This document shows positions 3,685-29,535 of a stretch of DNA of 51,199 nt, piece after piece (positions within the stretch are counted from its first letter, which is position 1; each line of letters opens with the position of its first letter). The translations under genes and the position numbers were made by a program. The stretch is from contig CAIWDB010000529.1 in assembly GCA_903911305.1 (NCBI GenBank), positions 1 to 51,199 of the forward strand, read 5' to 3'. This DNA comes from an uncultured Methylococcaceae bacterium (GTDB lineage: Bacteria > Pseudomonadota > Gammaproteobacteria > Methylococcales > Methylococcaceae). Under the pieces are notes generated by a model. It had not been told where the DNA came from. It was given only the letters and a program-made list of their open reading frames with translations, and did no database searches.

Positions 3685-3727
3685 CAGTATTTATTCTACT
3701 TATACACTCTTGAGTGACTTCATCCTT

Positions 3728-14900: not shown

Positions 14901-16328
14901 GTCCTTGAGCCGGGAGTCAAGGTTGCCATTGCCAAAGACAAATCCAACAACTTTGCCACCGCCCTCAAACCCCAACGGGCCACCGTACCCACACCAGCGC
15001 CAGCAAAGCTTGAAGAAGTTGCCACATCGGATAAAAAACCAAAGCCGGGGAAAACTGCCACCCCTGCTTCAAAACCTTTTCCGGTCAAGGTTGAGCGCGT
15101 TCGCCTGGACGATGGCATCATCGACTTTAGCGATTTGAGCTTGGTGATTCCTTTCGCCACCCGTGTGCATGACTTCGATGGAATGGCGACCGACATATCC
15201 ACCGCGCCCAATAGTCGCACCACGCTCAAATTTGCCGGGCGAGTGGAGGAGTTTGGCGAGGCCAAAGTGGATGGAACGCTGGTCCCATCTTCTTTCAAAA
15301 CCTTTAGCGATGTCAAAGTGATTTTCCGCAACGTTGAAATGTCCTCGCTTTCCCCCTATAGCGCCACTTTCGCAGGCCGCAAAATCACCTCTGGCAAGCT
15401 AAGTTTGGACTTATTGTACAAAATCGAAAACAGCAAACTAAAAAGCGAAAACAAAATTCTGTTGGATCAATTCACCTTGGGCGAGCAAGTGGAAAGCCCT
15501 GGCGCCACGTCCCTGCCACTCGATTTGGCCATTGCCATACTGAAGGACGGCGATGGCAAAATCAGCGCAACCGTGCCGATAGAAGGCGATGTTGACAACC
15601 CACAATTTGCCTATGGTTCGGTGGTTTGGGATGCTTTTGTCACCTTGATTAAAACGGCGGTGACCGCCCCATTCCGAGCCATGGGTTCATTGCTGGGAAT
15701 TGAAGCAGGCGAAGATCTAGGCGCAATAATGTTCCCCCCCGGAACCGATAAGGTCACACCCCCGGAACGGGAGAAAATCCAGAAAGTTGCTAAAGCCCTG
15801 GCACAGCGTCCCAAGGTCAAATTATCCTTGCGAGGCGGCTTTGACACCAAGCTGGATGGCGAGGCATTAAAGTCCTTGCGGATTCGACAGGCCGTGGACC
15901 ATAAGTTGGGTAATGATAGCAGCGACGGGGCAGAACCACTGTCCTTCAGCGATGGAAAAACCCAAAAGGCATTGGAAGACTTGGCTAAAGAGCGCGGAGA
16001 GGGTTTTCTCGATCCCGTCCAAGCTGATTTCGAAAAGTCTGCCGGCAGAAAACCGTCCAGAATTGTGGGCATGTCTTCACTATTGGGCCGGGCCAGCGAA
16101 GATCAAGCATTCTATGAGAAAGCCTTCCAACAATTGGTGGAGGCAGAGCCATTGCCAGCCAATGAACTGGAAAACTTAGCTGACCGGCGCATGAAGGCGG
16201 TGCTTAAAGAACTCACTGACCAATCGGGATTCGATAAAGGCCGAGTGGCTTTAGGCAAGGTTGAGTCTGTTTCCGACGGCAAAGACGGCAATGTGCCAAC
16301 CAAAATGGAATTGGGGACGCAGGAATAA
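11928..16328 (+). CDS. giant DUF748-family (AsmA-like clan) envelope protein with an N-terminal membrane anchor
   Basis: 1466 aa. The N-terminal TM segment is LLTGAGILVTYALLGFFLIPFLV. It is followed by FNPFLFKFEVDDFALKE...LVDFELESLFQRAWVFGDLSLEGPKVDLIV. The C-terminal block is LSPYSATFAGRKITSGKLSLDLLYKI...LPLDLAIAILKDGDGKISATVPIEGDVDNPQF. Both match the DUF748 pattern as I recall it. Confidence 0.8.
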   Translation: MKKLPPLASLLKNPWLLTGAGILVTYALLGFFLIPFLVEHYTPSIVNEKIKRQASMGAAHFNPFLFKFEVDDFALKELDGQPILALSHLLVDFELESLFQRAWVFGDLSLEGPKVDLIVDKEGKLNLASIADSLPKSEEPPPPPSPPPRFLLKHLALKDGIVTYTRQGGTKTLSPLNLELGEVSTLPQTNGTNKLDAELDDGGMIHWKGQFSLDPIFADGEFRLEGFKLGSAWKLIHDWLNLSELSGALSLSANYHFSQQKDKTELSIKEIGFSLAKLHMALADEAQPMLDLDAIQLDKAEFDLATHNVKLPSFTIQTGQVKAAIDKQGSMNWQRIMKPEDQTPQPPIASSPPTTPEPKDEATPWKVELGAFKLANIGLAYDDTSSQVPFAATIGNVGLDLGATAEVGVGDPKVGVHGIKLILKDINIAETGPKADPNPLFKLGNIQLDGAEFDLATRSVKLPNLALQTGHIKAAVDGQGDMNWQGIMKHNVQGNQQPASPAPPTPPSDPATKDAPPPWRLELGTLKLSELGIDYTVASSQVPFAASIGDIGLDLSATAEVGAGEPNVTAHGIKLTLKDTKVTETRPNSVPEPMLSLDNFKLEGAELDLAQHSVKLPSWVIEKGMLQVSVDAEERLNWQQLSKPVKANVQVPTPIKSAAKAVVKAAEKNEAKPAPWRLELGAFKLAELGIRYADDSRKRPYLASIGGLGLNFAATAVVGEGEPKAQVNGVNLSVKDIKLNEKGKAVPLMGLDNLEVAQGRLNLDKHDVAIDKITLKGGGVQIQRNADGTISLAEAFAPKAQTTQAATEPPAAKGTTPAAPWHVALKSFGLQGFRLAYTDDTFSSPIAYDVNNIDVNVNNVNYPGKSPLSYNAKLKLKQGGSLSVTGKASSTADSADTKVVADRLNLVPLQPVVAKFAKLNLDSADFSTNLQVGFRQIDAGSSIKATGTLDVGRLLLKEAIGGQRLLSWKNLAVKGIDFGLVPDHLNIKEVHVLEPGVKVAIAKDKSNNFATALKPQRATVPTPAPAKLEEVATSDKKPKPGKTATPASKPFPVKVERVRLDDGIIDFSDLSLVIPFATRVHDFDGMATDISTAPNSRTTLKFAGRVEEFGEAKVDGTLVPSSFKTFSDVKVIFRNVEMSSLSPYSATFAGRKITSGKLSLDLLYKIENSKLKSENKILLDQFTLGEQVESPGATSLPLDLAIAILKDGDGKISATVPIEGDVDNPQFAYGSVVWDAFVTLIKTAVTAPFRAMGSLLGIEAGEDLGAIMFPPGTDKVTPPEREKIQKVAKALAQRPKVKLSLRGGFDTKLDGEALKSLRIRQAVDHKLGNDSSDGAEPLSFSDGKTQKALEDLAKERGEGFLDPVQADFEKSAGRKPSRIVGMSSLLGRASEDQAFYEKAFQQLVEAEPLPANELENLADRRMKAVLKELTDQSGFDKGRVALGKVESVSDGKDGNVPTKMELGTQE
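12794..14500 (+). repeat. four tandem ~150-aa (~450-nt) modules inside the DUF748 gene
   Basis: Module starts are LDLDAIQLDKAEFDLATHNVKLP, FKLGNIQLDGAEFDLATRSVKLP, LSLDNFKLEGAELDLAQHSVKLP and MGLDNLEVAQGRLNLDKHDVAID. Each module continues through a Pro-rich linker and PW(K/R)(V/L)ELG...SSQVPFAA(T/S)IG...GLDL.ATAEVG. Boundaries are approximate. Confidence 0.65.
13471..13480 (+). repeat. C10 homopolymer inside the DUF748 coding sequence
   Basis: gat gcc ccc ccc cct tgg encodes DAPPPW at about codon 515. It is the longest homopolymer I found in the window. Confidence 0.9.
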
Positions 16329-16412: not shown

Positions 16413-18092
16413 TTACTTGGTTTCAGAATGGCTGGCCGCCACACTTGATGCAGAAGAGAGGTTTTCCTTGCTCAACGCCCCCACCATGGCCTGCAAATCG
16501 CCCCCTTTCATGCCGATTTCATTCAATACCGCATCAATGATCGGTTGCTGTGCGCGGTAGGCCAATGCCGCCGATACGGCTTGTTCGGCCAGATTGCTGC
16601 TGGCAGCATGGGCATTCCCGGTTTCGGAAACACCAGCCGAAGGACTGCGATTTAAGCCATCCACTTGCACGATTTTGATGCTGTCGATGTGTTCCATCGG
16701 CTTGACCGAGGCTTCAATGATGGATGGCAAGGCTTCCATGAGTTTCATTTTGATCTGCATCGCGATTTGCTCCGCACCCAGTGTGTTTAATGCGGCATTG
16801 CGCATTTCGATGCCTTTGGCGTCCACTTGATATTGCACTTGTTGCGCATCCGCCTTGATTTTGATGGCGGCAGCGTGGTTGTTCGCCGCGTCTTTTTCGG
16901 CTTCGGCGGCCACGCGGACACCAATGGCTTGCTTCTGCGCCTCTTGCTCGGCAGCGACCAAGGCGATTTGCTTGTCACGCTCGGCAATGGCGACATCTCT
17001 CGCCGTTTTCACCTGTTCTTCGGCACGGGCAGACAAGGCACGAGCTTCGTTGGCTTGTTTTTCCGCTTCGGATTGCGCCTTGGATTTTTCCGCAATCGAA
17101 ATTGCCTTTTCCTGACTGGCTAGGGTCGTGCGTTTTTCTTGTTCAATCTTGGCAACCTGCACGGAAAGATCCGCTTCGATCTGGCGTTGGCGGATGGCGC
17201 GATCCTTTTCCACTTCGGCCTCTTGCACCAAACGCTCGGCGTCGATCTTGGCTTGCTTGGCCTCGCGTTCGCGCTGCGCGGTGATGCTGGCAACCTCGGC
17301 TTTTTGCTGCACATCGCGGGTGGAGACTTCTTGTTGCTGTTGCAAGGTGGCAAAGGTCTGGTCTTTTTCGATGGTGAGCTTGAGTTGGTTGGCTTCGAAA
17401 TTCTTTTTGGCGATGGCAACCGAAGTATCCTGTTCGATTTCATTGCGCTCCCTAGACCGCTGCTGAGTCTGTTGGGTCAGTTTGGTCAAGCCCTCGGCGT
17501 CAAAGGCATTTTGCGGATCGAAAAACTTGATCGGGGTTTGGTCAAGCCGGGTCAAACTGACCGATTCCAGTTCCAGCCCATTTTTCAGCAAATCTTCCGA
17601 TACGGCATTTTGCACCGCTTGAATGAAATCGGCGCGCTTGTCCAGCAGTTGGTGCATACCCATGGAAACCGCCGCAGCACGCAAGGCATCCACAAATTTG
17701 TCTTCCACCAATTCTTTTAGCGAATCCGGGTGCAAAGTCCGCTGGCCCAAGGTTTGTGCCGCATTGGCAACCCCTTCCACGCTAGGAATCACTCGCACAA
17801 AGAATGCCGCCACCGCATCGACGCGCAGACGGTCCAGCGTAATCAAGCTGTCGTTGCCGGAACGCGACACTTCCAGCTTCAGCGTGTTCATATTGATGCT
17901 GACATATTCATGGAACACCGGCAGCATGATCGCGCCACCGTCCATGACGACTTTTTGCCCCCCCAATCCCGTTCGTACAAACGCCAGTTCTTTTGATGAC
18001 CGCCGGTACAGACGGGCGAACACTAAACCGATGACGGCGAAACCGATCAGCAGTACGAAGGCCATTTGCCCTAAACCAAATAAATGTTCCAT
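16413..18092 (-). CDS. yqiK: flotillin-like SPFH/band-7 protein (YqiK type)
   Basis: 559 aa. An N-terminal TM segment and an SPFH core (RRSSKELAFVRTGLGGQKVVMDGGAIMLPVFHEY...) are followed by a long Ala/Glu/Lys/Gln-rich coiled coil (EAKQAKIDAERLVQEAEVEK...), as in flotillins. Confidence 0.85.
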   Translation of the reverse strand: MEHLFGLGQMAFVLLIGFAVIGLVFARLYRRSSKELAFVRTGLGGQKVVMDGGAIMLPVFHEYVSINMNTLKLEVSRSGNDSLITLDRLRVDAVAAFFVRVIPSVEGVANAAQTLGQRTLHPDSLKELVEDKFVDALRAAAVSMGMHQLLDKRADFIQAVQNAVSEDLLKNGLELESVSLTRLDQTPIKFFDPQNAFDAEGLTKLTQQTQQRSRERNEIEQDTSVAIAKKNFEANQLKLTIEKDQTFATLQQQQEVSTRDVQQKAEVASITAQREREAKQAKIDAERLVQEAEVEKDRAIRQRQIEADLSVQVAKIEQEKRTTLASQEKAISIAEKSKAQSEAEKQANEARALSARAEEQVKTARDVAIAERDKQIALVAAEQEAQKQAIGVRVAAEAEKDAANNHAAAIKIKADAQQVQYQVDAKGIEMRNAALNTLGAEQIAMQIKMKLMEALPSIIEASVKPMEHIDSIKIVQVDGLNRSPSAGVSETGNAHAASSNLAEQAVSAALAYRAQQPIIDAVLNEIGMKGGDLQAMVGALSKENLSSASSVAASHSETK

Positions 18093-18141
18093 GAGTCACT
18101 CCCCTTAGTTTGCTTTTAGATAATCTGTGTCATTACCCAGA

Positions 18142-18172
18142 GTGGAAAACTTGCTTTGCCTGCCAAAGCAAG
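18142..18172 (-). terminator. intercistronic stem-loop with U-tract between yqiJ and yqiK (possible attenuator or partial terminator)
   Basis: 9-bp perfect stem cttgctttg/caaagcaag with a 5-nt loop. On the minus (sense) strand it is followed directly by TTTT. Confidence 0.45.
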
Positions 18173-18197
18173 CTTTGGCGCTCCTGTCCTGGGTCGC

Positions 18198-18824
18198 TTA
18201 AAGTAAGTCCGGGCGTGGATTGGCAATTGCCAAGAATCTTGAGCCGGAAATTTGTTTAACCAACAAAACCGAATCGCCAGTGACAAACTCGACGTTGTCG
18301 CCTTCAGGCTCTATATGAATATAAAATGTCTGTCCCTGTTCGCTTTTTACCCGCGCCTGTGCCGGATAATGCATTCTCGCCGTACCGTTAATCACTAGAG
18401 CCACATGCCCCACCAAGGTTTCTAGTAAAACTGCCGAAGTTTCGTCTTTGGGTATCAGCCTGGCAATGAGCTTGCCGGATATCCTAACCATCGGCAATGC
18501 AACGATAAAGGCAACCCCGGAAGACAAAACTGGATTCGGAAACACGCCCAAAAAACCATGGAAGACTAGGTTGAAAGCAAACCCGGCCAAGGCAAATGCA
18601 GTGAGCATGAGGATCAACAGAACCAACATCGGCACTTTGCCAAAGTGCAGCCAACCAAGCCAAGAATCCGGCAATCCGTCATAATGGATCAGGGCTATAT
18701 GGTCGATTGCGCCTGATAGGCTAGCCCCAACAAGCAGTGTGAGGATTTCGACAAGCCCAATTAACACCACCAGAATGACTGCAAAGGTAAAGGGCCAAGA
18801 CTCAGGTGCGATGAATAACTCCAT
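18198..18824 (-). CDS. yqiJ: YqiJ-like membrane protein (DUF1449, NfeD-like C-terminal OB fold)
   Basis: 208 aa. Several TM segments are followed by a soluble C-terminus (GTARMHYPAQARVKSEQGQTFYIHIEPEGDNVEFVTGDSVLLV). It sits immediately upstream of the flotillin gene, as in the yqiJK pair. Confidence 0.7.
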   Translation of the reverse strand: MELFIAPESWPFTFAVILVVLIGLVEILTLLVGASLSGAIDHIALIHYDGLPDSWLGWLHFGKVPMLVLLILMLTAFALAGFAFNLVFHGFLGVFPNPVLSSGVAFIVALPMVRISGKLIARLIPKDETSAVLLETLVGHVALVINGTARMHYPAQARVKSEQGQTFYIHIEPEGDNVEFVTGDSVLLVKQISGSRFLAIANPRPDLL

Positions 18825-18835
18825 GGGTTGTATTC

Positions 18836-19513
18836 TCAGCCGTTGTTTTGACCATTAGCCGCTTTTAGCGCCGCAAGACGTTCAGCGATGCGCTTGTTTC
18901 TTTGCAATTCGGCCAGTTCCTTGATCTTAGCCGCATCTTCCACACCGTTTAAACTCAACCCGGAAACGCCCAATTGCCTAGCGAGAACCCGACCGAAAGC
19001 CGCTTCGGCATCTTCGACACGCGAGCGGCGGTCAGACTCGCCATTGGTCTTTACCATCTCGGGCCGGAGAGATTTATTCGCCTGATATTCAACCAAAATC
19101 TGCTCCAATTCCCGCTTTTTGGCAAGCAGGGCCACCATATAACTCACCAACTCCTCGGCTTTTTGATTTTGTTCATCCAGCGACTTCCGCAAAACCGGAA
19201 GATAATCCTCAATATCGGCTTGCCTGCCTATCGCAGCCGAGGCTAAGTCGTCGCGCTGTTCGCTAACGGCAATGTCGATCTGCCCTTTCAATTTGTCATG
19301 CTCATCACTCAATTTGGCTATCTGGGTGGTGACCAAATGTTTGGCCGCCTCGGCTTTTCCAAGATCAACGCGAACTTCGCTGGCGACTTGTTCGATATCG
19401 CGTATGGATTGCGCCATGACAGTGTCAGGGGCAAGTGTTTCGGCTTTGTCGAGGAGTGCGTAAGTGCCTCCGGCAATGATACGAGCCACTCGGGTGGCGA
19501 TGGAGTCTGACAT
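18836..19513 (-). CDS. pspA: PspA/IM30 family protein
   Basis: I prefer Met16 of the track ORF (MSDSIATRVARIIAGGTYALLDKAE...). This removes the overlap with the upstream gene. The protein is an all-helical coiled coil of about 225 aa with the PspA-like N-terminal amphipathic helix. Confidence 0.8.
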   Translation of the reverse strand: MSDSIATRVARIIAGGTYALLDKAETLAPDTVMAQSIRDIEQVASEVRVDLGKAEAAKHLVTTQIAKLSDEHDKLKGQIDIAVSEQRDDLASAAIGRQADIEDYLPVLRKSLDEQNQKAEELVSYMVALLAKKRELEQILVEYQANKSLRPEMVKTNGESDRRSRVEDAEAAFGRVLARQLGVSGLSLNGVEDAAKIKELAELQRNKRIAERLAALKAANGQNNG

Positions 19514-19535
19514 GTTTATCCCCTTATAGGCTGGC

Positions 19536-19898
19536 TTATTTGCGAAAGCCGTATTCAAGCGTAAAAAACTGTGGGCTTAAATCCGCCAAAGGCCCGCGCA
19601 ACTTGTTTAGTTGATCCTCGCTGCCATGAATTTCCAAGCGGGTGAGTTCCGCAATTTTCAATGCCTCCTGCAACAAAGCCCCGACATTGTCCAAATGGGC
19701 CAAAGCCCCTTCGGCATCGGTGTAGCCTTCCCGGCAATGGACAATTTCGCCGTCAAAGCTAAAGCCATAATACAAAGCCTTGGGTTCGATTTTGGTTTTT
19801 TCGACAAATTGCTCGCATAACGCTTTGAATGCCGGTAGTTTGCCTTCATTAACCTTGAAGTAGGGTACGATACTGACGCAAGTGTCTTCAGTGGCCAT
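19536..19898 (-). CDS. ABM-fold (antibiotic-biosynthesis-monooxygenase-like) small protein
   Basis: 120 aa. The pattern VSIVPYFKVNEGKLPAFKALCEQFVEKTKIEPKALYYGFSFDGEIVHCREGYTDAEGALAHL fits the ferredoxin-like ABM/Dabb pattern. It is the first gene of the pspA-yqiJK transcription unit. Confidence 0.55.
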   Translation of the reverse strand: MATEDTCVSIVPYFKVNEGKLPAFKALCEQFVEKTKIEPKALYYGFSFDGEIVHCREGYTDAEGALAHLDNVGALLQEALKIAELTRLEIHGSEDQLNKLRGPLADLSPQFFTLEYGFRK

Positions 19899-20063: not shown

Positions 20064-20897
20064 ATGAATTCTTTTCTAATTACGTTAATTGTTTTCCTAT
20101 GCTGCACATGTGGCATTCTGTTAGGCACTTACATCCGAGTGCAATTGCCAGCACACCATCTAAGTGAAGAGTCCAAGGACATCGTCAAACTTAGCACTGG
20201 CCTGATAGCAACTCTAACCGCCCTGATTCTCGGTCTTTTAGTGGCATCAGCCAATGATACATTCCAATCATTCAATGATGGTTTGGATAAGATTGGCGCC
20301 GATTTGCTTATCATGGATAGGAGTTTGGCCTTTTATGGTCCCGAAGCCAAATTGACTCGGGACGCATTGCGCAAACTGACGGTTGTTGTCTTGATGAACA
20401 ACTGGCCTGATGACCAAGACCAAACGGAAACTCACTTGACCCACGAAGAGTTGGCTGGGTTACCAAACTATTCACAGACAAAACAGTTTGTCCATGGTGG
20501 TGCTTCAGAGGCATTGCGTGGCGCGGACGCTCTCTCGAATATTCAAAACATGCTGCTTAGACTCGAACCAAAAGACAATGCGCAACGCTGGAGGCAAGCA
20601 AGGGCTTTGGAAGTCAGCGGGAGCTTGGCGGAAAAACGCTGGCTGATGGTTGAGCAGTCTCAAAACAACCTTCCAACCCCGTTTTTGGTGGTATTGGTGA
20701 TTTGGCTAGTCATTTTGTTCGTCACCTTTAGCGTGTTTGCGCCTCGTAATAAAACAGTTAGAACGGTATTATTTCTCTGCGCTTTGTCCGTTTCAGGCTC
20801 GGTTTTTCTGATTTTGGAATTGAACAAACCAACCAGCGGACTATTGAAAATTTCTAGTGCGCCCTTGATGAAGGCACTTGATTTGATAGGCAAGTAA
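20064..20897 (+). CDS. DUF4239-like membrane protein
   Basis: 277 aa. The N-terminal TM segment is followed by LSEESKDIVKLSTGLIATLTALILGLLVASANDTF. Two C-terminal TM segments follow. This is the layout I associate with DUF4239. Confidence 0.55.
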   Translation: MNSFLITLIVFLCCTCGILLGTYIRVQLPAHHLSEESKDIVKLSTGLIATLTALILGLLVASANDTFQSFNDGLDKIGADLLIMDRSLAFYGPEAKLTRDALRKLTVVVLMNNWPDDQDQTETHLTHEELAGLPNYSQTKQFVHGGASEALRGADALSNIQNMLLRLEPKDNAQRWRQARALEVSGSLAEKRWLMVEQSQNNLPTPFLVVLVIWLVILFVTFSVFAPRNKTVRTVLFLCALSVSGSVFLILELNKPTSGLLKISSAPLMKALDLIGK

Positions 20898-21186: not shown

Positions 21187-21202
21187 ATGGCATTAAATAT
21201 GC
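21187..21202 (+). promoter_or_regulatory. candidate sigma-54 (-24/-12) promoter in the leader of the hyf-like operon
   Basis: The sequence is TGGCAttaaataTGCt, with GG and GC separated by exactly 10 nt. It sits in a 640-nt AT-rich intergenic region, 138 nt upstream of the small ORF at 21339 and 340 nt upstream of ATG 21541. Confidence 0.35.
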
Positions 21203-21338
21203 TTTTATTATTCAATCCAAGAAAAATAGACAAATAATTAACTTACATCTTGCCTAATCGCCGTTTTACCAATCCTTCGGCTATTATGCTTTCTTGATTT
21301 CTCGCCTTAATTTATGACAACTATTCACTAGGATTACA

Positions 21339-21458
21339 ATGAAATTTATTGACATGCTTTTAAAAAGCGCATCCAACGACCCGGATTTTCTGGAAGGGTT
21401 TTCAACAGTGGTTTTAACAGGGTTTATGGCGTTGTTGGTAATCATTTTGTTCATTTGA
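21339..21458 (+). CDS. possible 39-aa single-TM peptide upstream of the hyf-like operon
   Basis: My own translation is MKFIDMLLKSASNDPDFLEGFSTVVLTGFMALLVIILFI*. It has a polar N-terminus and a hydrophobic C-terminal helix. It is below the ORF-track length cut-off and has no strong RBS, so the call is speculative. Confidence 0.25.
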   Translation: MKFIDMLLKSASNDPDFLEGFSTVVLTGFMALLVIILFI

Positions 21459-21540: not shown

Positions 21541-23655
21541 ATGTCATTGTTTTTTGCATACTTGTCCGTGGCCGCCTCTTTGGCGTCTGGAGTGGCGGCT
21601 TTGGCTACCGATCATCGTGTGATGCTTGATCGTTTTGCAGATTTGATATTGCGGCGATGGCCAAGGCAACAAGATCAAGCGGGGGTTCTCTTTTCCGAGC
21701 GTCAGTTTGCCGAAAGCCATCGCAACAGCTTGTTCGTCTTACTGGGTATTTCTGGAGTTTTTGCGATACTGGCAGGCGCTACGGCAATGCTCAACGGTTC
21801 GGTGACTACCGACACTTTGCCATTAGGACTGCCTTGGCTGCATTGGCATATTCGCTTCGACGCACTTTCGGGCTTCTTTTTTATGATTATCGGCATGCCA
21901 CTTTGTGCCGTCAGCCTATTCGGGCCGGGTTATGTTCAAGAATTTGAGCATGGCAAGCATTCACTCACCGTGCTAGGTCTATTCACTGGCCTTTTCGTGG
22001 CTGGCATGGAATTGGTTTTGCTTGCCGATGATGCTTTTTTCTTCGTCATCGCTTGGGAATTAATGTCGGTCTCAAGTTACTTTCTAGTGGCTTTCCAACA
22101 CGAGCAAGCCAGCAACCGTCGAGCGGCCTTTTTGTATCTGCTGATGGCAGTGATCGGAGCCATGGCGATCATCCTCGCCTTTGGTGTGTTGGCGGGATTC
22201 AGCGGTGGATTGCTGTTTGATGATTTTCGTTCCGTCAAATTAAGCCCAGTCTGGGCCAGCGTGGCATTTGTGCTAGGACTGTTTGGCTTTGGAATGAAGG
22301 CGGGCTTAGTGCCGTTACATGCGTGGCTGCCCGAAGCCCATCCAGCAGCACCCGCCCATGTCTCCGCACTCATGAGCGGGGTCATGTTGAAAGTCGCCGT
22401 TTATGGTTTCATCCGTTTCACCTTCGACCTTCTTGATCAAGTGATGTGGGAATGGGGAGGTGTGGTGTTGGTGATTGGGGCTGGTTCGACCCTGTTAGGT
22501 GTGTTATATGCGATGATGCAGCATGACATAAAACGCTTGCTCGCCTATCACTCCGTGGAAAATATCGGCATCATTTTCATAGGCCTGGGTTTATGTATAA
22601 TCTATGTGAGTGAAGGGAAAAGCCAAATCGCCGCCCTAGCCATGGTGGCAGCCTTATTCCACTGCTTAAACCATGCCCTGTTTAAAAGCCTGCTATTCCT
22701 TGGCGCTGGCTCGATCATTCACCAAACTCACGAGCAGAACATTGAACACTTGGGGGGCTTGATCCACCGGTTGCCAAAGTTGTCGGTCGTGTTTTTGATC
22801 GGCACCTTGAGTATTGCCGCCTTACCGCCCTTTAACGGATTTGTCTCGGAATGGCTGACTTTTCAGGCAGCGCTCCAAGCGGGGGGGATTCATAGCGGCG
22901 TATTACGCAGCTTAGTTCCCGCCAGTGCATCCTTGCTGGCCTTGGCTGGCGCTTTGACGGCCACCTGCTTTGTCAAATTGTACGGCGTGGTTTTCTTAGG
23001 CCTACCCCGCACCCGCCATGCCGCCAACTGCCATGAATCCCCTCATCGCGGTATGCTGGCCGGACCTGCCATGCTCGCCGGACTTTGTGTCTTACTAGGC
23101 ATTTTTCCAACACCTATGATTGAAAGTTTGAACATTGTCACGGGACAACTGTTGGGCGATGCTTTGCCGGGCGCTTCCGCATTAGGCTGGTTGTGGCTAA
23201 CGCCAGTCGCACCTGAAGTGGCATCCTATTCCCCATCACTAGTGCTGGTGGGCATCCTGCTGACTGGCTGGCTTTGCTATCGACTCATTTACCGACGTGG
23301 TGGATTGGAAGCCCGACGGGCAGAACCTTGGGATTGCGGATTCGGTGGATTGAATTCGCACATGCAATATACCGCCACCGCCTTTAGCATGCCCATCCGC
23401 CGTATTTTTGAACCCGTCTTTGTCGTTGAAGAAACCATTTCGGAACAAAAGTCCGGACCAGATGGGTTCAACACCGATACCCTTCATTACCAATTACGAG
23501 TGTCCGACCTTTCTTGGGGCTATGTTTATCAACCGGTGGCCCAATTGGTCATCACCCTCAGCCGCTGGGTGAGCAGGATACAAACCGGCAACATAAGAAC
23601 CTACATCGCCTATTCGTTCTTTACCTTGCTCATTTTGCTTTGGGGTATTAGTTAA
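21541..23655 (+). CDS. HyfB/HycC-like, NuoL-type antiporter-like membrane subunit
   Basis: 704 aa, polytopic. It has AWELMSVSSYFLVAF (TM5 Glu), GFGMKAGLVPLHAWLPEAHPAAPAHVSALMSGVMLK (TM7 Lys) and the C-terminal EPWDCGFGG block seen in HyfB/HycC. An AGGA RBS lies 7 nt upstream. Confidence 0.88.
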   Translation: MSLFFAYLSVAASLASGVAALATDHRVMLDRFADLILRRWPRQQDQAGVLFSERQFAESHRNSLFVLLGISGVFAILAGATAMLNGSVTTDTLPLGLPWLHWHIRFDALSGFFFMIIGMPLCAVSLFGPGYVQEFEHGKHSLTVLGLFTGLFVAGMELVLLADDAFFFVIAWELMSVSSYFLVAFQHEQASNRRAAFLYLLMAVIGAMAIILAFGVLAGFSGGLLFDDFRSVKLSPVWASVAFVLGLFGFGMKAGLVPLHAWLPEAHPAAPAHVSALMSGVMLKVAVYGFIRFTFDLLDQVMWEWGGVVLVIGAGSTLLGVLYAMMQHDIKRLLAYHSVENIGIIFIGLGLCIIYVSEGKSQIAALAMVAALFHCLNHALFKSLLFLGAGSIIHQTHEQNIEHLGGLIHRLPKLSVVFLIGTLSIAALPPFNGFVSEWLTFQAALQAGGIHSGVLRSLVPASASLLALAGALTATCFVKLYGVVFLGLPRTRHAANCHESPHRGMLAGPAMLAGLCVLLGIFPTPMIESLNIVTGQLLGDALPGASALGWLWLTPVAPEVASYSPSLVLVGILLTGWLCYRLIYRRGGLEARRAEPWDCGFGGLNSHMQYTATAFSMPIRRIFEPVFVVEETISEQKSGPDGFNTDTLHYQLRVSDLSWGYVYQPVAQLVITLSRWVSRIQTGNIRTYIAYSFFTLLILLWGIS

Positions 23656-24599
23656 TGGCTTGGTTACTCGCACTTCTGCAAACCTTATTATTCATTAGTA
23701 GTGCCCCGCTATTGGCTGGATGGCTAAAAAAAGTCAAATGCCGCCTGCAAAATCGCCGGGCACCTTCGATATTTCAACCTTACCGTGACTTGCGCAAATT
23801 GTGGAAGAAAGAACCCATTATTGCGCATCCTGCCTCTTGGATATTCAAGGCCGCACCTTATGTGGTGTTATCGACCACTGTATTGACCGCTTCCATCATC
23901 CCGTTGATCGCGGTCAACCTACCCACAGCGAAAATAGCCGATGTGGTGGTATTGATTGGTTTCTTTGCCTTAGGCCGGTTTTTTCTGGCACTGGCAGGCA
24001 TGGACATAGGCACGGCCTTTGGCGGTATGGGTTCTTCGCGGGAAATGACGGTTTCATCATTGGCCGAACCCGCGATGTTGATGGCAGTGTTCACGCTGGC
24101 AATGAGTGCTTCCACCACAAACCTTTCGGAGGCGATGAAATATGTGCTGGACACTGGCTTAGTACTGCGCCCTTCTTTTATTTTCGCCATGCTCGGCCTA
24201 ATGCTGGTGGCGGTGGCGGAAACCGGACGGATACCCGTGGACAATCCGACCACTCACCTTGAATTGACCATGATCCACGAAGCGATGATCTTGGAATATA
24301 GCGGTCGTTATCTCGGCATGATCGAATGGGCCAGCCAGATTAAACTGATGATATACGGCGTGTTAATTGCCAATATTTTCTTTCCTTGGGGCATCGCACA
24401 AGAATTTACTTTGGAAGCCTTAGGGGTAGGGGCGATGGCCTTGACATTTAAGCTAGTCGTCTTGACCGTATTGCTGAGTTTGACAGAAGTGATATTTGCC
24501 AAAATGCGGGTGTTTCGGGTGCAGGAATATCTTAGTTTTGCTTATCTACTCACCCTTTTGGGAATGTTGAGCCACATTATTTTGGAGGTGCAACACTGA
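23655..24599 (+). CDS. HyfC/HycD-like, NuoH-type membrane subunit
   Basis: 314 aa. It has LQNRRAPSIFQPYRDLRKLWKKE (compare HyfC RRGPGIWQDYRDIHKLFKR) and the TEL...HEAMILEYSG block. Its start overlaps the previous stop (TAATG). Confidence 0.88.
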   Translation: MAWLLALLQTLLFISSAPLLAGWLKKVKCRLQNRRAPSIFQPYRDLRKLWKKEPIIAHPASWIFKAAPYVVLSTTVLTASIIPLIAVNLPTAKIADVVVLIGFFALGRFFLALAGMDIGTAFGGMGSSREMTVSSLAEPAMLMAVFTLAMSASTTNLSEAMKYVLDTGLVLRPSFIFAMLGLMLVAVAETGRIPVDNPTTHLELTMIHEAMILEYSGRYLGMIEWASQIKLMIYGVLIANIFFPWGIAQEFTLEALGVGAMALTFKLVVLTVLLSLTEVIFAKMRVFRVQEYLSFAYLLTLLGMLSHIILEVQH

Positions 24600-25276
24600 T
24601 GGACATTACCCAATTAAGCCATTACCAACAGGCGATCATGCTACTTGCCGCGATGATCGTGCTAACTTCATTCTTGATGTTGGGGCAGTCGCGTTTATTA
24701 CGCCTAGTGTCAATTTTTTCCGTGCAAGGTGTGTTATTGGCGATTACCACGGCACTGGCTGCCGATGTTTTGAATTCCCCGCATCTTTATATATCAGCCT
24801 TATTGACGTTGAGCCTGAAAGGTATATTCATTCCCTTCATGTTGCATCGTTTAGTCGTCAACATGGGCTTGCATCGGGATATGGAAACCTTGAAAAACCC
24901 TGCACGGGTGATGATGGGTGGCACGGGCTTGGTGGTGTTTAGTTATTACGTTTGCCTACCCATCATCAAACTGTCACCGCTGATCACCTTGAACACCATC
25001 GCCATCAGTATGGCCGTGGTGTTGTTGGGCATGTTGCTGATGATTACCCGTCGGCAAGCGGTGGCCCATGTGGTGGGTTTTATGTCCATCGAAAACGGGT
25101 TGTTCTTCGCCGCAGTGGTATCCACCTACGGTATGCCAATGGTGGTTGAATTGGGCATTGCTTTTGACGTGCTGGTGGCTGCCATATTGTTTGGGGTGTT
25201 TTTCTTTCATATTCGCACAAGCATCGACTCCTTGGATGTAGATCAACTTAACCGCTTAAGCGAGGTGGAAAAATGA
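24599..25276 (+). CDS. HyfE-like small membrane subunit
   Basis: 225 aa. The block VGFMSIENGLFFAA...VVELGIAFDVLVAAILFGVFF...LDVDQLNRLSE parallels the HyfE C-terminal region (MENG...ELVEIGIATD...LDVNNLTALKG). It overlaps the previous gene by TGATG. Confidence 0.78.
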   Translation: MDITQLSHYQQAIMLLAAMIVLTSFLMLGQSRLLRLVSIFSVQGVLLAITTALAADVLNSPHLYISALLTLSLKGIFIPFMLHRLVVNMGLHRDMETLKNPARVMMGGTGLVVFSYYVCLPIIKLSPLITLNTIAISMAVVLLGMLLMITRRQAVAHVVGFMSIENGLFFAAVVSTYGMPMVVELGIAFDVLVAAILFGVFFFHIRTSIDSLDVDQLNRLSEVEK

Positions 25277-26739
25277 TTGCCGCCTACCTATTACTGTTTA
25301 TACCTTTGGCGGGTATGTTGATCTTGTCTTGGGTCAATGATAGCCATCAAGCCGGGCGCATCAACATACGTTTCAATACTGTGGCTCTAATTGCCTCGCT
25401 TTGGTTGGCGGTCAATGTGTTACTGCAAGGGCCAATCTTGTCGAATACCCAGATGATTTACATAGACTCATTCAATGTCTATCTGATCGCCTTGACTGCT
25501 TTCGTGGGATTGACCACTTCGATATTCTCTGGACCCTACATGGCCCACGAGCAGGAATTGGGCAAAGTCGGGAAAAAACGGCTACGCCTTTACTACACCA
25601 TGTATCAAGGCTTCATGCTGGCAATGTACTTGGTTTTGACGACCAACAACATGGGCGTGATGTGGGTGGCGATGGAAGGGGCGACGCTTGCCACGGTGTT
25701 GCTAGTTAGCCTTTACCGCACACCGGAATCGGTTGAAGCCGCTTGGAAGTATTTTATCCTCTGTGGTGTCGGCATTGCCCAAGCCTTGTTCGGAACGGTG
25801 TTGCTGTACTTTGCCTCGGAGCAAATTCAAGGCATCCAAGAAAACGCTTTGCTTTGGACGGTTCTTTACAAGAATGCCAATCTGCTCAATCCGAGTGTCA
25901 TGAGTATCGCCTTTGTGTTTTTATTGGTCGGCTACGGCACAAAAATTGGGCTTGTCCCCCTGCATAATTGGTTGCCCGATGCCCACTCCGAAGGACCAAC
26001 CCCGATGTCGGCCATTCTGTCCGGGCTGTTGCTCAATGATGCCCTCTACGCGGTAGTGCGTTGCAAAATGTTAGTGGACGGTTCTTTAGGCAACCATCAG
26101 GCCGGCAATTTGATGATGGGGTTTGGGCTGCTGTCCTTCCTTGTGGCGGTGCTGTTCCTGCACAGGCAACACGACATTAAACGTCTGTTCAGTTATTCCT
26201 CCATTGAACATATGGGGCTAATGACGTTCGCCTTCGGCATCGGCAGCCCTTGGGCCACCTTTGCCGCATTATTTCACATGACGACTCATTCGCTGACCAA
26301 ATCGGCGATTTTCGTCACCGTAGGTTATGCCTCACAATTGGCAAAAACCCAGCGGATGGAAAAAATCCGCGGACTTATTCATACCCAACCTGCCATTGGT
26401 TGGGGTTTGCTGATGGGGACTGTCGCTATTGCAGGATTCCCTCCTTTTGGCGTGTTCGCCAGTGAATTCCTTGTGCTTATCGCCACGATGGACGACTACC
26501 CTTGGCTGACTCCGTTGCTGTTACTCGGGATTGGCATTGCTTTTGCCGGATTGTTTCGTCAAATACAGCCGATGGTATACGGAGATGTGCCACAAGGACA
26601 ATTGCCCATCAAGGCAAACTTATGGCCTGTGATGATTCATCTAGGCATCGTGTTATGCCTAGGGTTGGCCATCCCTTCTTTTTTGGGCAATTGGTTTAAT
26701 CAGGCAACCCAACTCATCTCGGGAAAGCTGCCGTTATGA
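25273..26739 (+). CDS. HyfF-like, NuoM/N-type antiporter-like membrane subunit
   Basis: 488 aa. It has WVAMEGATLATVLLVS (TM5 Glu) and GYGTKIGLVPLHNWLPDAHSEGPTPMSAILSG (TM7 Lys). ATGA overlaps are present at both ends. Confidence 0.88.
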   Translation: MIAAYLLLFIPLAGMLILSWVNDSHQAGRINIRFNTVALIASLWLAVNVLLQGPILSNTQMIYIDSFNVYLIALTAFVGLTTSIFSGPYMAHEQELGKVGKKRLRLYYTMYQGFMLAMYLVLTTNNMGVMWVAMEGATLATVLLVSLYRTPESVEAAWKYFILCGVGIAQALFGTVLLYFASEQIQGIQENALLWTVLYKNANLLNPSVMSIAFVFLLVGYGTKIGLVPLHNWLPDAHSEGPTPMSAILSGLLLNDALYAVVRCKMLVDGSLGNHQAGNLMMGFGLLSFLVAVLFLHRQHDIKRLFSYSSIEHMGLMTFAFGIGSPWATFAALFHMTTHSLTKSAIFVTVGYASQLAKTQRMEKIRGLIHTQPAIGWGLLMGTVAIAGFPPFGVFASEFLVLIATMDDYPWLTPLLLLGIGIAFAGLFRQIQPMVYGDVPQGQLPIKANLWPVMIHLGIVLCLGLAIPSFLGNWFNQATQLISGKLPL

Positions 26740-28355
26740 AAGAGACCAACAAACCATTCGAAGATGAAAAAGATCGCCCTGGCCCTCTGTGGCGGTTTTT
26801 CTTGGAACTCTCCACGATTGGGCTTGATGCTCAGCCCGTAGAGCCTAGCCCTTTGTCACCCGCGCATTTGATGGACATTAAACCCAAGGACTGGGGCAGA
26901 GCGGCAGAATTGGCGAGGGGGCAGTCATGGCGATGGGTGGCGGGTTGGGCTGAAGACGAAGACAGCATGGTTTCCGTTAGCGTCTGCGTTGAACGGCAAG
27001 GCTGCTACATGGTGCTAAGAACGCGGACAAACAGTCAGTCTCCCTCCATACTCTCACATACGCCTTATTTTGCATCGGCCAACCGACCTGAACGGCACAT
27101 GCATGATTTGTTTGGCATTGAGTTTGTCAACCATACCCATCCACAACGGTGGACCCGGCATCAAGCGTGGGACAATGAAACAGCTCCTCTGCGCCATACA
27201 TTCCCCAAGGAAGGCCATCCGCCAAAACAAACACCCCCTGATAAAGACTATCCATTTTTCAAAGCCGAAGGCCACGGTGTTTACGAAATCCCAGTTGGGC
27301 CTGTTCATGCCGGGATCATTGAGCCGGGGCATTTTCGGTTTCATGCCGTAGGCGAGACTTTGCTGCACTTGGAGGAACGTTTGGGTTATGTGCATAAGGG
27401 AATGGAAAAAATTGCCGAAGGTCGGACAGCGGACTCTTTGGCGAGACTGGCCGGTCGGGTTTCAGGTGACACCACAGTGGGTCATGCCTTTGCCGCTTGT
27501 TTGGCGATGGAACGCGCTGCGAATATCGAAGTGCCGCTGCGAGCCTCTTTTATTCGCGGTTTAATGGCCGAACGGGAGCGGGTTGCCAATCATTTGTGGG
27601 ACATGGGGATGATTTGCAACGATGTTGGCTTTGCCTTCGCCTATTACCAGTTTGGTCGGCTTAGGGAGTTATGGCTGCGAGACAATCAAGCCCTATTCGG
27701 ACACAGGCTGCTGATGGACAGGATCATCCCCGGCGGTGTCAAATTCGATGTGTCAACCGAGGCGGTAAATCGCATGAAGGATTCTTTCAAGGGATTGCGA
27801 CGTGAACTGGATCAACTCATCACCATCATCGACCAAAATTCGTCACTTGAAGATCGCCTGGTCACCACCGGACATTTGACACTGGCAGATGCGCAAACAC
27901 TGGGGGTACTTGGGTATGTCGGCCGGTCTAGCGGGCAGACCTTTGACGTGCGCCACGATGCGCCCTATCCACCTTACGACCAATTGGAGGTCAAAGTGCC
28001 AGTGGAAGAACAGGGCGATGTGGCATCCCGCTTTTGGGTCCGTTACAAGGAAACGCGGGTGGCTTTGAAACTGATGGAAAAGCTGCTCGACAAGTTGCCA
28101 GAAGGGGATATTGCCATTGCATGGGTAAATCCGAAAACGGGAGCCGAAGGCTTTGGGGTGGTTGAAGGTTGGCGAGGGGAAATTCTCAGTTATGTGCGAT
28201 TTGGCGAAAACGGTTGCATCAGCCGCTATTACCCACGAGACCCCAGCATAGTCAATTGGCCTGCCTTAGAAAAACTTGTCCTAGGCAATATCGTCCCCGA
28301 CTTTCCCGTTTGCAACAAATCGGTCAATGGATCTTACTCGGGCAACGACTTATAG
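26736..28355 (+). CDS. HyfG/HycE-like fused NuoC-NuoD-type subunit lacking all four [NiFe] cysteine ligands
   Basis: 539 aa. A NuoC-like N-terminal domain is followed by the core IPVGPVHAGIIEPGHFRFHAVGETLLHLEERLGYVHKGMEK. The L1 position reads RVSGDTTVGH (27456..27485) instead of RxCGxCxxxH. The C-terminus reads DFPVCNKSVNGSYSGNDL (28299..28352) instead of D(I/F)P...DPCxxCxDR. Confidence 0.88.
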   Translation: MKETNKPFEDEKDRPGPLWRFFLELSTIGLDAQPVEPSPLSPAHLMDIKPKDWGRAAELARGQSWRWVAGWAEDEDSMVSVSVCVERQGCYMVLRTRTNSQSPSILSHTPYFASANRPERHMHDLFGIEFVNHTHPQRWTRHQAWDNETAPLRHTFPKEGHPPKQTPPDKDYPFFKAEGHGVYEIPVGPVHAGIIEPGHFRFHAVGETLLHLEERLGYVHKGMEKIAEGRTADSLARLAGRVSGDTTVGHAFAACLAMERAANIEVPLRASFIRGLMAERERVANHLWDMGMICNDVGFAFAYYQFGRLRELWLRDNQALFGHRLLMDRIIPGGVKFDVSTEAVNRMKDSFKGLRRELDQLITIIDQNSSLEDRLVTTGHLTLADAQTLGVLGYVGRSSGQTFDVRHDAPYPPYDQLEVKVPVEEQGDVASRFWVRYKETRVALKLMEKLLDKLPEGDIAIAWVNPKTGAEGFGVVEGWRGEILSYVRFGENGCISRYYPRDPSIVNWPALEKLVLGNIVPDFPVCNKSVNGSYSGNDL

Positions 28356-28365
28356 AGGTAATGGG

Positions 28366-28911
28366 ATGTTAGGCATTTATCGAAAAATCTTAACCACGGG
28401 CATGTTGACGGAAAAGTTTGCCAGACACATAAAGAAACCGAAACAGTCCGCCATAGAAATTCGCGAACCGGAAATTGATGCGCTTGGCAATACATTGAAA
28501 TCCACCATTGACAGACGTTTTGCGGGTAGTCTGCATATTCGCCAAGTGGATGCCGGTTCCTGCAATGGGTGCGAGTTGGAAATACATGCACTCAACAATG
28601 TCTATTATGACATTGAGCGTTTCGGTGTACATTTTGTGGCATCGCCCCGCCATGCCGATGTGTTGTTGGTGACTGGGCCGGTTTCCCGCAACATGGAGGA
28701 GGCATTGCGTAGAACCTATGAAGCAACCGCCAATCCGAAATGGGTGATTGCCGTGGGCGACTGCGGGGCATGTGGCGGTGAGTTTGGCGTGTCCTATGCC
28801 AGTTGCGGCGCGGTTTCCAACGTCATCCCAGTCGATGCCGTCATACCCGGATGTCCACCGACACCAGTGGATTTAATGCGGGGCATTTTAGATTTATTCG
28901 CAAAACATTAG
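28366..28911 (+). CDS. HyfI/HycG-like, NuoB-type [4Fe-4S] subunit
   Basis: I prefer ATG 28366 (GAGG RBS, after the upstream stop) over the track start at 28327. The cysteine motifs SCNGCELE, AVGDCGACGG and IPGCPP are retained. Confidence 0.88.
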   Translation: MLGIYRKILTTGMLTEKFARHIKKPKQSAIEIREPEIDALGNTLKSTIDRRFAGSLHIRQVDAGSCNGCELEIHALNNVYYDIERFGVHFVASPRHADVLLVTGPVSRNMEEALRRTYEATANPKWVIAVGDCGACGGEFGVSYASCGAVSNVIPVDAVIPGCPPTPVDLMRGILDLFAKH

Positions 28912-28932
28912 GGTATCTCGAAAAACCCCGCA

Positions 28933-29001
28933 CTTCGACAAGTTCAGTGCGGACGGTTTCAGTAAAATCAATCTCTTCCGTTCGTGCTGAGCCTGTCGAA
29001 G
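28933..29001 (+). repeat. REP-like long hairpin immediately 3' of the hyf-like operon
   Basis: The 24-nt arms are 28933..28956 and 28978..29001, with a 21-nt loop. There are 19 Watson-Crick pairs plus 4 positions that are G.U only in the plus-strand RNA, and 1 A.C mismatch. A 12-nt arm core (ttcgacaagttc) recurs at 11025..11036. Confidence 0.55.
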
Positions 29002-29535
29002 CATGAACATAAGCAGTTTTTCGAGGTTCCCCTTAGATTTGGCTGGCGACACCTTCTTGCCATTAAAGCGCTTGCCTGTCGTGAAATAGCGACACCTATT
29101 TTTAAGTTTTTGGTTGGATTCAAATATTCCTGTTGATTTATAACGTATTTTCTGCCCGCCCACTTTGTCGCCGAGTCAATATCTGCCAAAATACAGTCTC
29201 TCACATAAAGTATTTCGTCACCTAGAACCCCCCAATATGGATCATCACTTCCTCTAATTGCTTATTTCAAGATTAATCGCCAAATATTGGCATATATTCC
29301 CTAGCATCCTTATTCAAGATGTCTAGTCTAATTCCGGAACAACTCCTTAACTAATGGCATCCATTTTGCCTACTTGCTGTGGGATTGGGGCCATCGGTTT
29401 GCATCTGCCTTTACTCTCAGAAAGATTTGGAAACAACCGTGCGCGCCCCATTGCTATGGCCCAATCAAACTAGGGCAACGGTATAAGCCTTGGCTTAAAG
29501 GGTTCTGAGTTTTTCTGATGAGTGAGGAGATCGCC

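Follow-up and report, generated by a model that had tools for sequence, protein, structure and literature searches.

Does an operon that resembles a group-4 [NiFe] hydrogenase still encode a hydrogenase when the cysteines that hold the metal are gone? The question is raised by six genes on a 51,199-nucleotide stretch of DNA (contig CAIWDB010000529.1, positions 1 to 51,199, assembly GCA_903911305.1; hereafter the window) from an uncultured, Methylococcales-like gammaproteobacterium, and above all by the fifth of them, whose product is of the hydrogenase large-subunit type. Our analysis showed that the cysteine replacement is real, conserved and under purifying selection, and the result of neither chance nor decay. 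The six-gene complex almost certainly belongs to the Ehr/Hyq family, that is, to the six-subunit, complex I-like membrane assemblies which descend from group-4 [NiFe] hydrogenases and have lost the Ni-Fe site. Our favoured reading is that the operon encodes a non-hydrogenase Ehr/Hyq module whose redox chemistry is coupled to ion translocation; we give this reading as a whole a probability of roughly 0.55.

Loss of the [NiFe] cysteines in the large subunit

The large subunit and the residues in it that carry the argument are the following:

26736..28355, + strand: EhrL/HyqG, a NuoC-NuoD fusion 'large subunit' without [NiFe] cysteines; open reading frame (ORF) of 539 amino acids
27321..27323, + strand: Glu196, proton-relay glutamate of the beta1-beta2 loop, kept; aligns with MbhL E21 and HycE E193
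27456..27485, + strand: L1 motif remnant RVSGDTTVGH (formerly RxCGxCxxxH), R241..H250; Cys to Ser243, Cys to Thr246, family-specific Asp245
27621..27623, + strand: Asp296, a family-specific gain in a loop of the four-helix bundle; aligns with a conserved Asp of NuoD/NDUFS2
28173..28175, + strand: Arg480, canopy arginine, kept; HycE R478 in the gap-free alignment
28299..28352, + strand: L2 motif remnant DFPVCNKSVNGSYSGNDL (formerly DPCxxCxxR), residues 522-539 followed by the stop codon, placed by the HMMER and MAFFT alignments
28326..28328, + strand: Asn531, where HycE has the canopy aspartate D529

HMMER, Pfam and Foldseek agreed that EhrL is a homologue of group-4 [NiFe] hydrogenase large subunits and of NuoD. 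The Pfam domains Complex1_30kDa, NiFeSe_Hases (its N-terminal part only) and Complex1_49kDa were identified in the protein, and no NCBIfam model scored at or above its cut-off. Upon phmmer search against all PDB chains, the best match was E. coli HycE (7z0s_E, E=1.8e-62); P. furiosus MbhL (E=1.2e-38) was also matched, as was, much more weakly, MbsL (E=1.2e-24).

The HMMER alignment of EhrL with HycE is gap-free from EhrL residue 232 to the C-terminus. In it, RVCGICGFAH of HycE pairs with RVSGDTTVGH and SLDPCYSCTD with SVNGSYSGND, and the alignment with P. furiosus MbhL gave the same register for the first motif. Both by HMMER and in a MAFFT alignment of E. coli HycE, HyfG and NuoCD (from the MG1655 genome) with 183 relatives, S243, T246, S533 and G536 fall in the four columns of the Ni-Fe cysteines. 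The original prediction, an earlier reading of the letters of the window, had claimed that all four ligand cysteines are replaced, the C-terminal pair by Ser and Gly; this is confirmed, the latter two being S533 and G536, and its coordinates and translations for both motifs proved exact on re-translation. It had allowed for a mis-registered indel, and the proper alignments show no cysteine at any ligand column. The lone cysteine of DFPVC, which it had placed outside the ligand positions, is indeed outside them: this residue, C526, sits seven residues before the first C-terminal ligand column. Besides the two lost cysteines, the L2 remnant has Asn531 in place of the canopy aspartate and Leu539 in place of the terminal arginine. 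EhrL ends with NGSYSGNDL and then the stop codon, with no C-terminal maturation extension.

Among the 120 closest homologues in the database (59-79% identity, mostly from Methylococcales), R-x-x-G-x5-H was present in 115, and all 115 had Ser at the first cysteine position. The exact string RVSGDTTVGH was found in 73 of the 120, and all 120 end in N-x-S-Y-[SA]-G-x-D-L. A broader set was made up of 150 representatives of 50%-identity clusters and 80 genome loci, and 143 of its sequences were Cys-less. The original prediction had proposed the conservation of Ser, Thr, Ser and Gly among orthologues as a check. In the 143 Cys-less relatives this holds for S243 (90%), S533 (99%) and G536 (100%) but not for the second cysteine column, where T, S, N, E and A all occur, and T246 is therefore unlikely to be a ligand of anything. 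The ratio of non-synonymous to synonymous substitution rates (dN/dS) of the large-subunit gene was about 0.12 against a 77%-identical orthologue.

Remodelling of the pocket

We then compared the 143 Cys-less sequences with 17 sister sequences that keep all four cysteines (CCCC). Position 243 switches from Cys to Ser, position 245 from Val, Ala or Thr in the CCCC sisters to Asp in 97% of the Cys-less sequences, position 296 from Gly (82% of the CCCC relatives) to Asp (94% of the Cys-less), and positions 502-503 from Ser-Ala to Asp-Pro. Positions 533 (Cys to Ser), 536 (Cys to Gly) and 539 (Arg to Leu) switch along with the others. Glu196 and Arg480 are each conserved in at least 95% of both groups alike. 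The roles of the relay glutamate (HycE E193, MbhL E21; PMC7684303, PMC9474812) and of the canopy arginine and aspartate (HycE R478 and D529; PMC9474812) have been described previously. Asn285/His286, Glu439 and Arg397 of EhrL match the proton path S283/H284/E437/R395 of HycE. The canopy aspartate (HycE D529, NDUFS2 D458) has been reported as strictly conserved across hydrogenases and complex I (PMC9474812); the Cys-less family has Asn there (N531), and the sister group with cysteines has Glu or Asn. R501 was considered as the canopy arginine and ruled out, as the gap-free HycE alignment gives R480.

Asp296 aligns with an Asp of E. coli NuoCD, Aquifex NuoCD2 and plant NDUS2, and we take it to be the Nqo4 D139-type residue, the aspartate that partners the histidine of the complex I quinone site. 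The positions of the quinone-binding Tyr and His of NuoD are occupied by Gly244 and Ile195 in EhrL; their counterparts Y87 and H38 of Nqo4 have known roles at the quinone headgroup (PMC7684303). It had been claimed that the residue at the first cysteine position is not the Tyr of NuoD. No Tyr is present, but the Tyr aligns with Gly244, one residue later. The wider claim, that the pocket looks like neither a hydrogenase nor a quinone site, is right in that the NuoD Tyr and His are gone and goes too far in that Glu196, Arg480 and the His/Glu/Arg path are kept and the complex I-type D296 is gained. Judged from the alignments, the pocket appears to be a mosaic, in which proton delivery of the hydrogenase type has been kept, an aspartate of the complex I type and extra carboxylates have been gained and the metal ligands have been lost. 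Three new aspartates (245, 296 and 502) have become fixed in the family, apparently around the former metal site, where homology places them close together.

Two AlphaFold2 monomer models of EhrL were made, from 47 and 81 sequences, with a mean predicted local distance difference test score (pLDDT) of 75 and 81, respectively. Foldseek placed HycE (7z0s_E) first, with a template modelling score (TM-score) of 0.81 and 26% identity in the structural alignment, followed by NuoCD chains. No Ehr/Hyq structure was among the phmmer (PDB) or Foldseek matches, and the closest solved relative is HycE both by sequence and by fold.

The operon and its other subunits

The large-subunit gene is the fifth of six in a tight operon at 21541..28911 on the + strand, in which starts and stops overlap or are closely spaced. 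The other five genes are:

21541..23655, + strand: EhrA/HyqB, NuoL/HyfB-like antiporter-like membrane subunit; 704 amino acids; Pfam Proton_antipo_M, E=4e-60
23655..24599, + strand: EhrB/HyqC, NuoH/HycD-like membrane anchor; 314 amino acids; Pfam NADHdh, E=6.5e-38
24599..25276, + strand: EhrC/HyqE, HyfE-like membrane subunit; 225 amino acids; same position in about 80 related loci
25273..26739, + strand: EhrD/HyqF, NuoM/N/HyfF-like antiporter-like subunit; 488 amino acids; Pfam Proton_antipo_M, E=3e-54
28366..28911 (probable start), + strand: EhrS/HyqI, NuoB/HycG-like small subunit; 181 amino acids; Pfam Oxidored_q6, E=3e-31

EhrA and EhrD scored above the cut-offs of the NCBIfam models 'hydrogenase 4 subunit B' (826 bits) and 'hydrogenase 4 subunit F' (777 bits), respectively. 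EhrC matched 'hydrogenase 4 membrane subunit' below its cut-off (E=1.5e-20). EhrB, whose start overlaps the ehrA stop, can be aligned over its length with HycD, HyfC and NuoH. In EhrA, Glu173 of transmembrane (TM) helix 5, Lys253 of TM7, Lys284 of TM8 and Glu437 of TM12 align with the proton-pumping residues of NuoM, and Glu135, Lys224, Asn255 and Glu398 of EhrD form the pattern of HyfF. The TM5 Glu, TM7 Lys and TM12 Glu are thus kept in both proteins, and the TM8 Lys additionally in EhrA.

The longest ORF of EhrS opens at 28327 and so shares its first 29 nucleotides with the end of the large-subunit gene. An AGAGGT lies 6 nucleotides before the ATG at 28366, and ehrS of the relatives starts about 10 nucleotides past the large-subunit stop; the real start is probably 28366. 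Cys66, Cys69, Cys133 and Cys163 of EhrS, in the hydrogenase-type spacing CxxC...C...C, are kept in 77-78 of 78 homologues and correspond in the alignment to the [4Fe-4S] ligands of HycG, HyfI and NuoB. EhrS carries C-N-G-C like HycG and HyfI, not the tandem CC of the NuoB cluster N2. Neither the operon nor the rest of the 51-kb window was found to encode a NuoI/HycF-like (EchF/MbhN) Fe-S relay subunit, and the window also lacks any hyp, nif or formate dehydrogenase gene.

Family assignment and distribution

Ehr stands for 'energy-converting hydrogenase-related' and denotes group-4-like complexes without the [NiFe] ligands (PMC6349859, PMC10284858). The loss of the cysteines is a known hallmark of Ehr/Hyq, in the literature since 2005-2013, and the window adds a new member, not a new kind. 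We found no discussion of Ehr in methanotrophs in the searchable open-access literature.

A scan of genomes, in which each species was represented once, gave at least 597 matches that encode a relative, and the best 80 loci were analysed. The order A-B-C-D-L-S was found in almost all of these 80 loci, which come from five or more bacterial classes. Their hosts include Methylococcales, Chromatiales and sulfur oxidisers with names in Thio-, Nitrospirota, Zetaproteobacteria, the alphaproteobacteria Xanthobacter, Azospirillum and Mesorhizobium, and the betaproteobacteria Methylibium and Thiomonas. Further betaproteobacterial hosts, namely Polaromonas, Variovorax and Rhodoferax, came from a second search, of proteins. 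Ehr/Hyq operons are very common among species-level genomes; they are carried by methanotrophs and nitrifiers as well as by oxidisers of sulfur and iron. A rough neighbour-joining tree puts the EhrL of the window in a clade of 124 Cys-less sequences, and the adjoining clade holds 17 Cys-bearing ones (DFPLINKSFELCYAC.DR). This placement agrees with published work, in which Ehr adjoins group 4f.

A second, divergent Ehr-like operon was observed beside the first in some hosts (locus L040, 12090..16831; L042, 89..4491; L055, 4..2959), including a zetaproteobacterium, a metagenome-assembled genome (MAG) of Nitrospirota and Methylibium. For the second operon, identity is 26-41% for the membrane subunits, 32-36% for the large subunit and 47-60% for the small subunit. 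The large subunits of the second copies are also Cys-less, e.g. RVSGTSSFAH ... NKSFNLSYSGTDM.

Database names for the large subunit include 'Ni,Fe-hydrogenase III large subunit', 'hydrogenase large subunit' and 'NADH-quinone oxidoreductase subunit C', and annotation pipelines routinely apply labels of this sort to the operon, 'hydrogenase 4 subunit B/F' among them. With such misleading names and the above-cut-off scores to the hydrogenase 4 B and F equivalogs, genome surveys could wrongly infer H2 metabolism. Recognising Ehr/Hyq as Cys-less prevents this false inference in genome-based ecology.

Comparison with known systems

The Ehr of Geobacter sulfurreducens, with EhrA-D, EhrL and EhrS, has the same subunit set as the window operon; there a NuoL-like EhrA and a HyfE-like EhrC go together with EhrL as the large and EhrS as the small subunit (PMC7894505). 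The Nitrospirota loci (L035-L045), whose group is called Ehr in previous studies (PMC10284858, PMC12342949), share 44-50% identity and gene order with the window. We found no difference of kind between Ehr and the window copy, other than the host. Relatedness to the type examples, G. sulfurreducens EhrL and Azorhizobium caulinodans HyqG, is indicated only through close relatives, namely Xanthobacter flavus, Azospirillum and the Nitrospirota MAGs.

Hyq of A. caulinodans (hyqBCEFGI) comprises six structural genes in the same order as in the window. HyqG has been described as a NuoC::NuoD fusion without both CxxC motifs, whose Ni,Fe site is 'uncertain, if not unlikely' (Sprecher et al. 2012, PMC3357923), and HyqI has the CxxC...C...C [4Fe-4S] site, as does EhrS of the window. 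The orthologues on the Hyq side, from Xanthobacter and Azospirillum, are 47-49% identical to the window EhrL and share its C-terminal motif NKSFN.SYSG.DL. These loci end in ...PLCNKSFNCSYSG.DL, whose cysteines fall exactly at the positions reported as Cys-491 and Cys-497 for the 504-amino acid HyqG, and this ties the family of the window to Hyq. Two differences were found: the alphaproteobacterial proteins have Cys at the position of G532 of the window, and neither a hyqR-like regulator nor a NifA/sigma-54 promoter is evident in the window.

Like the group-4 hydrogenase subunits HycE, HyfG and MbhL, EhrL has an N-terminal fusion of the NuoC type, the relay Glu, the canopy Arg and the His/Glu/Arg path, and their complexes share the CxxC of the small subunit. 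However, the window protein has none of the four Ni-Fe cysteines, Asn531 for the canopy Asp and no C-terminal extension, and its operon has neither Fe-S subunits of the HycF/HycB type nor hyp genes close by. The NuoD/Nqo4/NDUFS2 subunit of complex I likewise lacks the four hydrogenase cysteines and has an Asp at the position of D296, and the Q-module/P-module architecture is common to both. Complex I differs in that its quinone Tyr and His correspond to Gly244 and Ile195 here, its NuoB has a tandem CC instead of CxxC (a distinction described in PMC7684303 and PMC9474812), and its NuoI, NuoA, NuoJ/K as such and NADH module are missing from the window operon.

The original prediction had drawn an analogy with MBX/MBS-type sulfane reductases. 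This is apt in that MBS, like the complex of the window, is hydrogenase-derived, has lost its Ni-Fe site and reuses the scaffold (PMC7684303). It is less apt in detail, since MbsL of P. furiosus keeps two of the four cysteines, has no relay Glu and is a weaker match than HycE or NuoD. MBS further has a hydrophobic pocket, a three-Cys proximal cluster and a NuoI-like subunit, MbsN (PMC7684303), whereas the window complex has none of the four cysteines, Glu196, polar and acidic pocket residues, a four-Cys cluster and no NuoI-like subunit.

Proposed function and alternative explanations

The missing cysteines, maturation extension and hyp genes, together with the Ehr literature, in which expression of Ehr in N. 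moscoviensis was not raised by H2, argue against Ni-Fe hydrogenase chemistry, and we consider it very likely that the complex is not a Ni-Fe hydrogenase. The kept cluster, proton path and pumping residues and the strong purifying selection point to redox-coupled ion translocation rather than to a transporter or a relic, and Ehr has been suspected in the same literature to couple cytoplasmic redox reactions to charge translocation. Taken by itself, the claim that the complex is a redox-coupled ion-translocating module is about evenly balanced, and any specific pair of substrates is doubtful. In such a module, the single [4Fe-4S] cluster would carry electrons between a cytoplasmic partner and a protonatable substrate in the remodelled polar pocket. 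The partner would dock where NuoI normally sits and might most plausibly be a ferredoxin- or flavodoxin-type carrier; the substrate might most plausibly be a quinone or quinol. This redox chemistry would be coupled to movement of H+ or Na+ through EhrA and EhrD, so that energy would be conserved in the forward direction and the proton-motive force would make low-potential reductant in the reverse direction.

Several points weigh against this reading. No partner oxidoreductase gene is conserved beside the operon across the 80 loci, where the recurrent flanking ORFs encode regulators, SulP (in one order only) and a small helix-turn-helix protein, so both the donor and the acceptor named above are guesses. 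The Tyr and His of NuoD are missing, and quinone binding, if any, must therefore differ from that of complex I. A NuoI-like subunit is also missing, and we know of no solved structure that gives a precedent for direct reduction of the proximal cluster. Both AlphaFold2 models have a pLDDT below 50 at residues 172-220 and 517-539, that is, in the pocket strands and the tail, which wrap the former metal site, so the clustering of D245, D296 and D502 comes from homology only. The genetics of A. caulinodans Hyq gave H2-related phenotypes (PMC2650096, PMC3357923), and the Ehr subunits of Geobacter were more abundant on formate (PMC7894505).

In the closest named relative (locus L085, 12791..19050, GCA_026399135.1, with a 77%-identical EhrL), the ehr genes are directly followed by genes for a GltD-like Fe-S flavoprotein and a 1199-amino acid pyruvate:ferredoxin oxidoreductase (PFOR), with a DHO_dh-family protein also encoded downstream. 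These are on the same strand as ehr, and NnrS lies upstream; this ferredoxin-linked neighbourhood was not seen in the window. The PFOR/GltD-like genes are suggestive support for a link to ferredoxin, restricted to one lineage.

What Ehr/Hyq does matters for understanding the evolution of complex I from hydrogenases. The pattern of residues set out above (Glu and Arg kept, three Asp gained, Asp replaced by Asn, a four-Cys cluster and no NuoI) gives targets for mutagenesis and structure determination.

Among the alternatives, transport of anions or inorganic carbon survives best, though we regard it as improbable. A local H+ or Na+ gradient would be made or used for the adjoining SulP-type (BicA-like) transporter or the bestrophin-like channel, by analogy with the cyanobacterial NDH-1/Cup or the DAB systems, and redox chemistry would be secondary or absent. 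In 12 Methylococcales-type loci the gene directly upstream, in the same orientation, is SulP; it lies 25 bp upstream in Methylococcus geothermalis (L089, 1147..2781), and in Methylomonas AM2-LC (L090, 10405..16926) DabB-DabA and the same SulP come after the operon. The window itself has an orthologous SulP (3710..5389, 55-66% identity) 16 kb upstream of the operon and a bestrophin-like anion-channel gene (20064..20897) immediately upstream of it, and the antiporter residues of EhrA and EhrD are intact. Such neighbours may hint at a connection to the transport of inorganic carbon or anions. However, the association with SulP is limited to one order, where it could be inherited synteny, and is absent from the Nitrospirota and the alpha- and betaproteobacterial loci, and the strictly conserved [4Fe-4S] ligands argue for electron transfer.

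A genuine H2-converting 'endo-hydrogenase' with a non-canonical catalytic site, as proposed for A. caulinodans Hyq, is more improbable. Many Methylococcales fix N2, and the window protein keeps Glu196, Arg480 and the proton path. Deletion of hyq, which is NifA-dependent, slows diazotrophic growth of A. caulinodans and alters its recycling and evolution of H2 (PMC2650096, PMC3357923). These phenotypes could equally be explained by supply of reductant to nitrogenase, which itself makes H2. All four ligand columns lack cysteine, and the second of them varies. Cys-491 and Cys-497 of HyqG correspond to Cys and Gly in the window and to Ile and Leu in betaproteobacteria, and are hence not family-wide. 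The C-terminal extension is absent from the protein, as are hyp genes from the window. The authors of the Hyq work themselves called the Ni,Fe site 'uncertain, if not unlikely' (PMC3357923), H2 did not raise Ehr expression in N. moscoviensis, and the family occurs in many non-diazotrophs, e.g. Polaromonas and Variovorax. That Ehr/Hyq makes or activates H2 without a Cys-ligated Ni-Fe centre is very unlikely. Its active site might then, for example, lie at or next to the proximal [4Fe-4S] cluster, or be a metal site lined by carboxylates and serine (Asp245, Asp296, Asp502 and Glu196). If this were true, hundreds of species of aerobic bacteria, methanotrophs among them, would possess a hydrogenase of a new class.

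That the operon is a group-4 hydrogenase operon in decay, left over and without function, as the loss of every catalytic cysteine and the lack of accessory genes nearby might suggest, is effectively refuted by the conservation data, given six intact ORFs with overlapping or close starts and stops, a dN/dS of 0.12, replacement residues that are themselves 90-100% conserved across phyla, and peptides of the Geobacter homologues found by proteomics (PMC7894505). An alignment artefact, in which a correctly placed indel would bring C526 or C255 (nine residues after the second N-terminal column) to a ligand position, has practically no chance of being right: the gap-free HMMER alignment is anchored on both sides (R241, G244 and H250; S529, Y534, S535 and D538), MAFFT yields the identical register, C526 is replaced by Ile, Val or Thr in many relatives, and the CCCC sisters fix the register by having the same flanks (DFPLINKSFELCYAC.DR).

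Other features of the window

One further ORF lies upstream of ehrA:

21339..21458, + strand: small ORF of 39 amino acids with one predicted TM helix, MKFIDMLLKSASNDPDFLEGFSTVVLTGFMALLVIILFI

A 44%-identical peptide was found a short way downstream of ehrS in one relative with 73% identity (L087/L088, 12364..12498; tblastn E=5e-4), and none in the other loci examined. The small ORF could encode an accessory subunit or be a coincidence, and whether it belongs to the complex is uncertain.

Neither the leader region nor the whole window gave a match in Rfam and tRNA scans, and consensus scans for promoters and terminators stayed at background level. The sequence at 21188..21203, TGGCATTAAATATGCT, about 350 nucleotides upstream of ehrA, resembles a sigma-54 -24/-12 promoter. 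As a sigma-54/NifA-type promoter, the kind on which hyq depends, it was rejected, such matches occurring at chance frequency in the window and none being found upstream of ehrA in 60 other loci. Downstream of the operon, a non-coding stretch of about 600 bp (28911..29518) contains an inverted repeat, CCGCACT...AGTGCGG, at about 28930..28955 with no T-run; no Rfam, tRNA or terminator assignment could be made in this stretch.

The SulP gene of the window (3710..5389) is followed by genes for a histidine kinase and a sigma-54 response regulator. The stretches 11928..16328 and 16413..19898 lie upstream of the bestrophin-like gene and are unrelated to the cysteine loss. They hold a gene for an AsmA/DUF748-family protein of 1466 amino acids and a cluster on the minus strand with flotillin (SPFH), YqiJ-like and PspA/IM30-like genes, which resembles a membrane-stress module.

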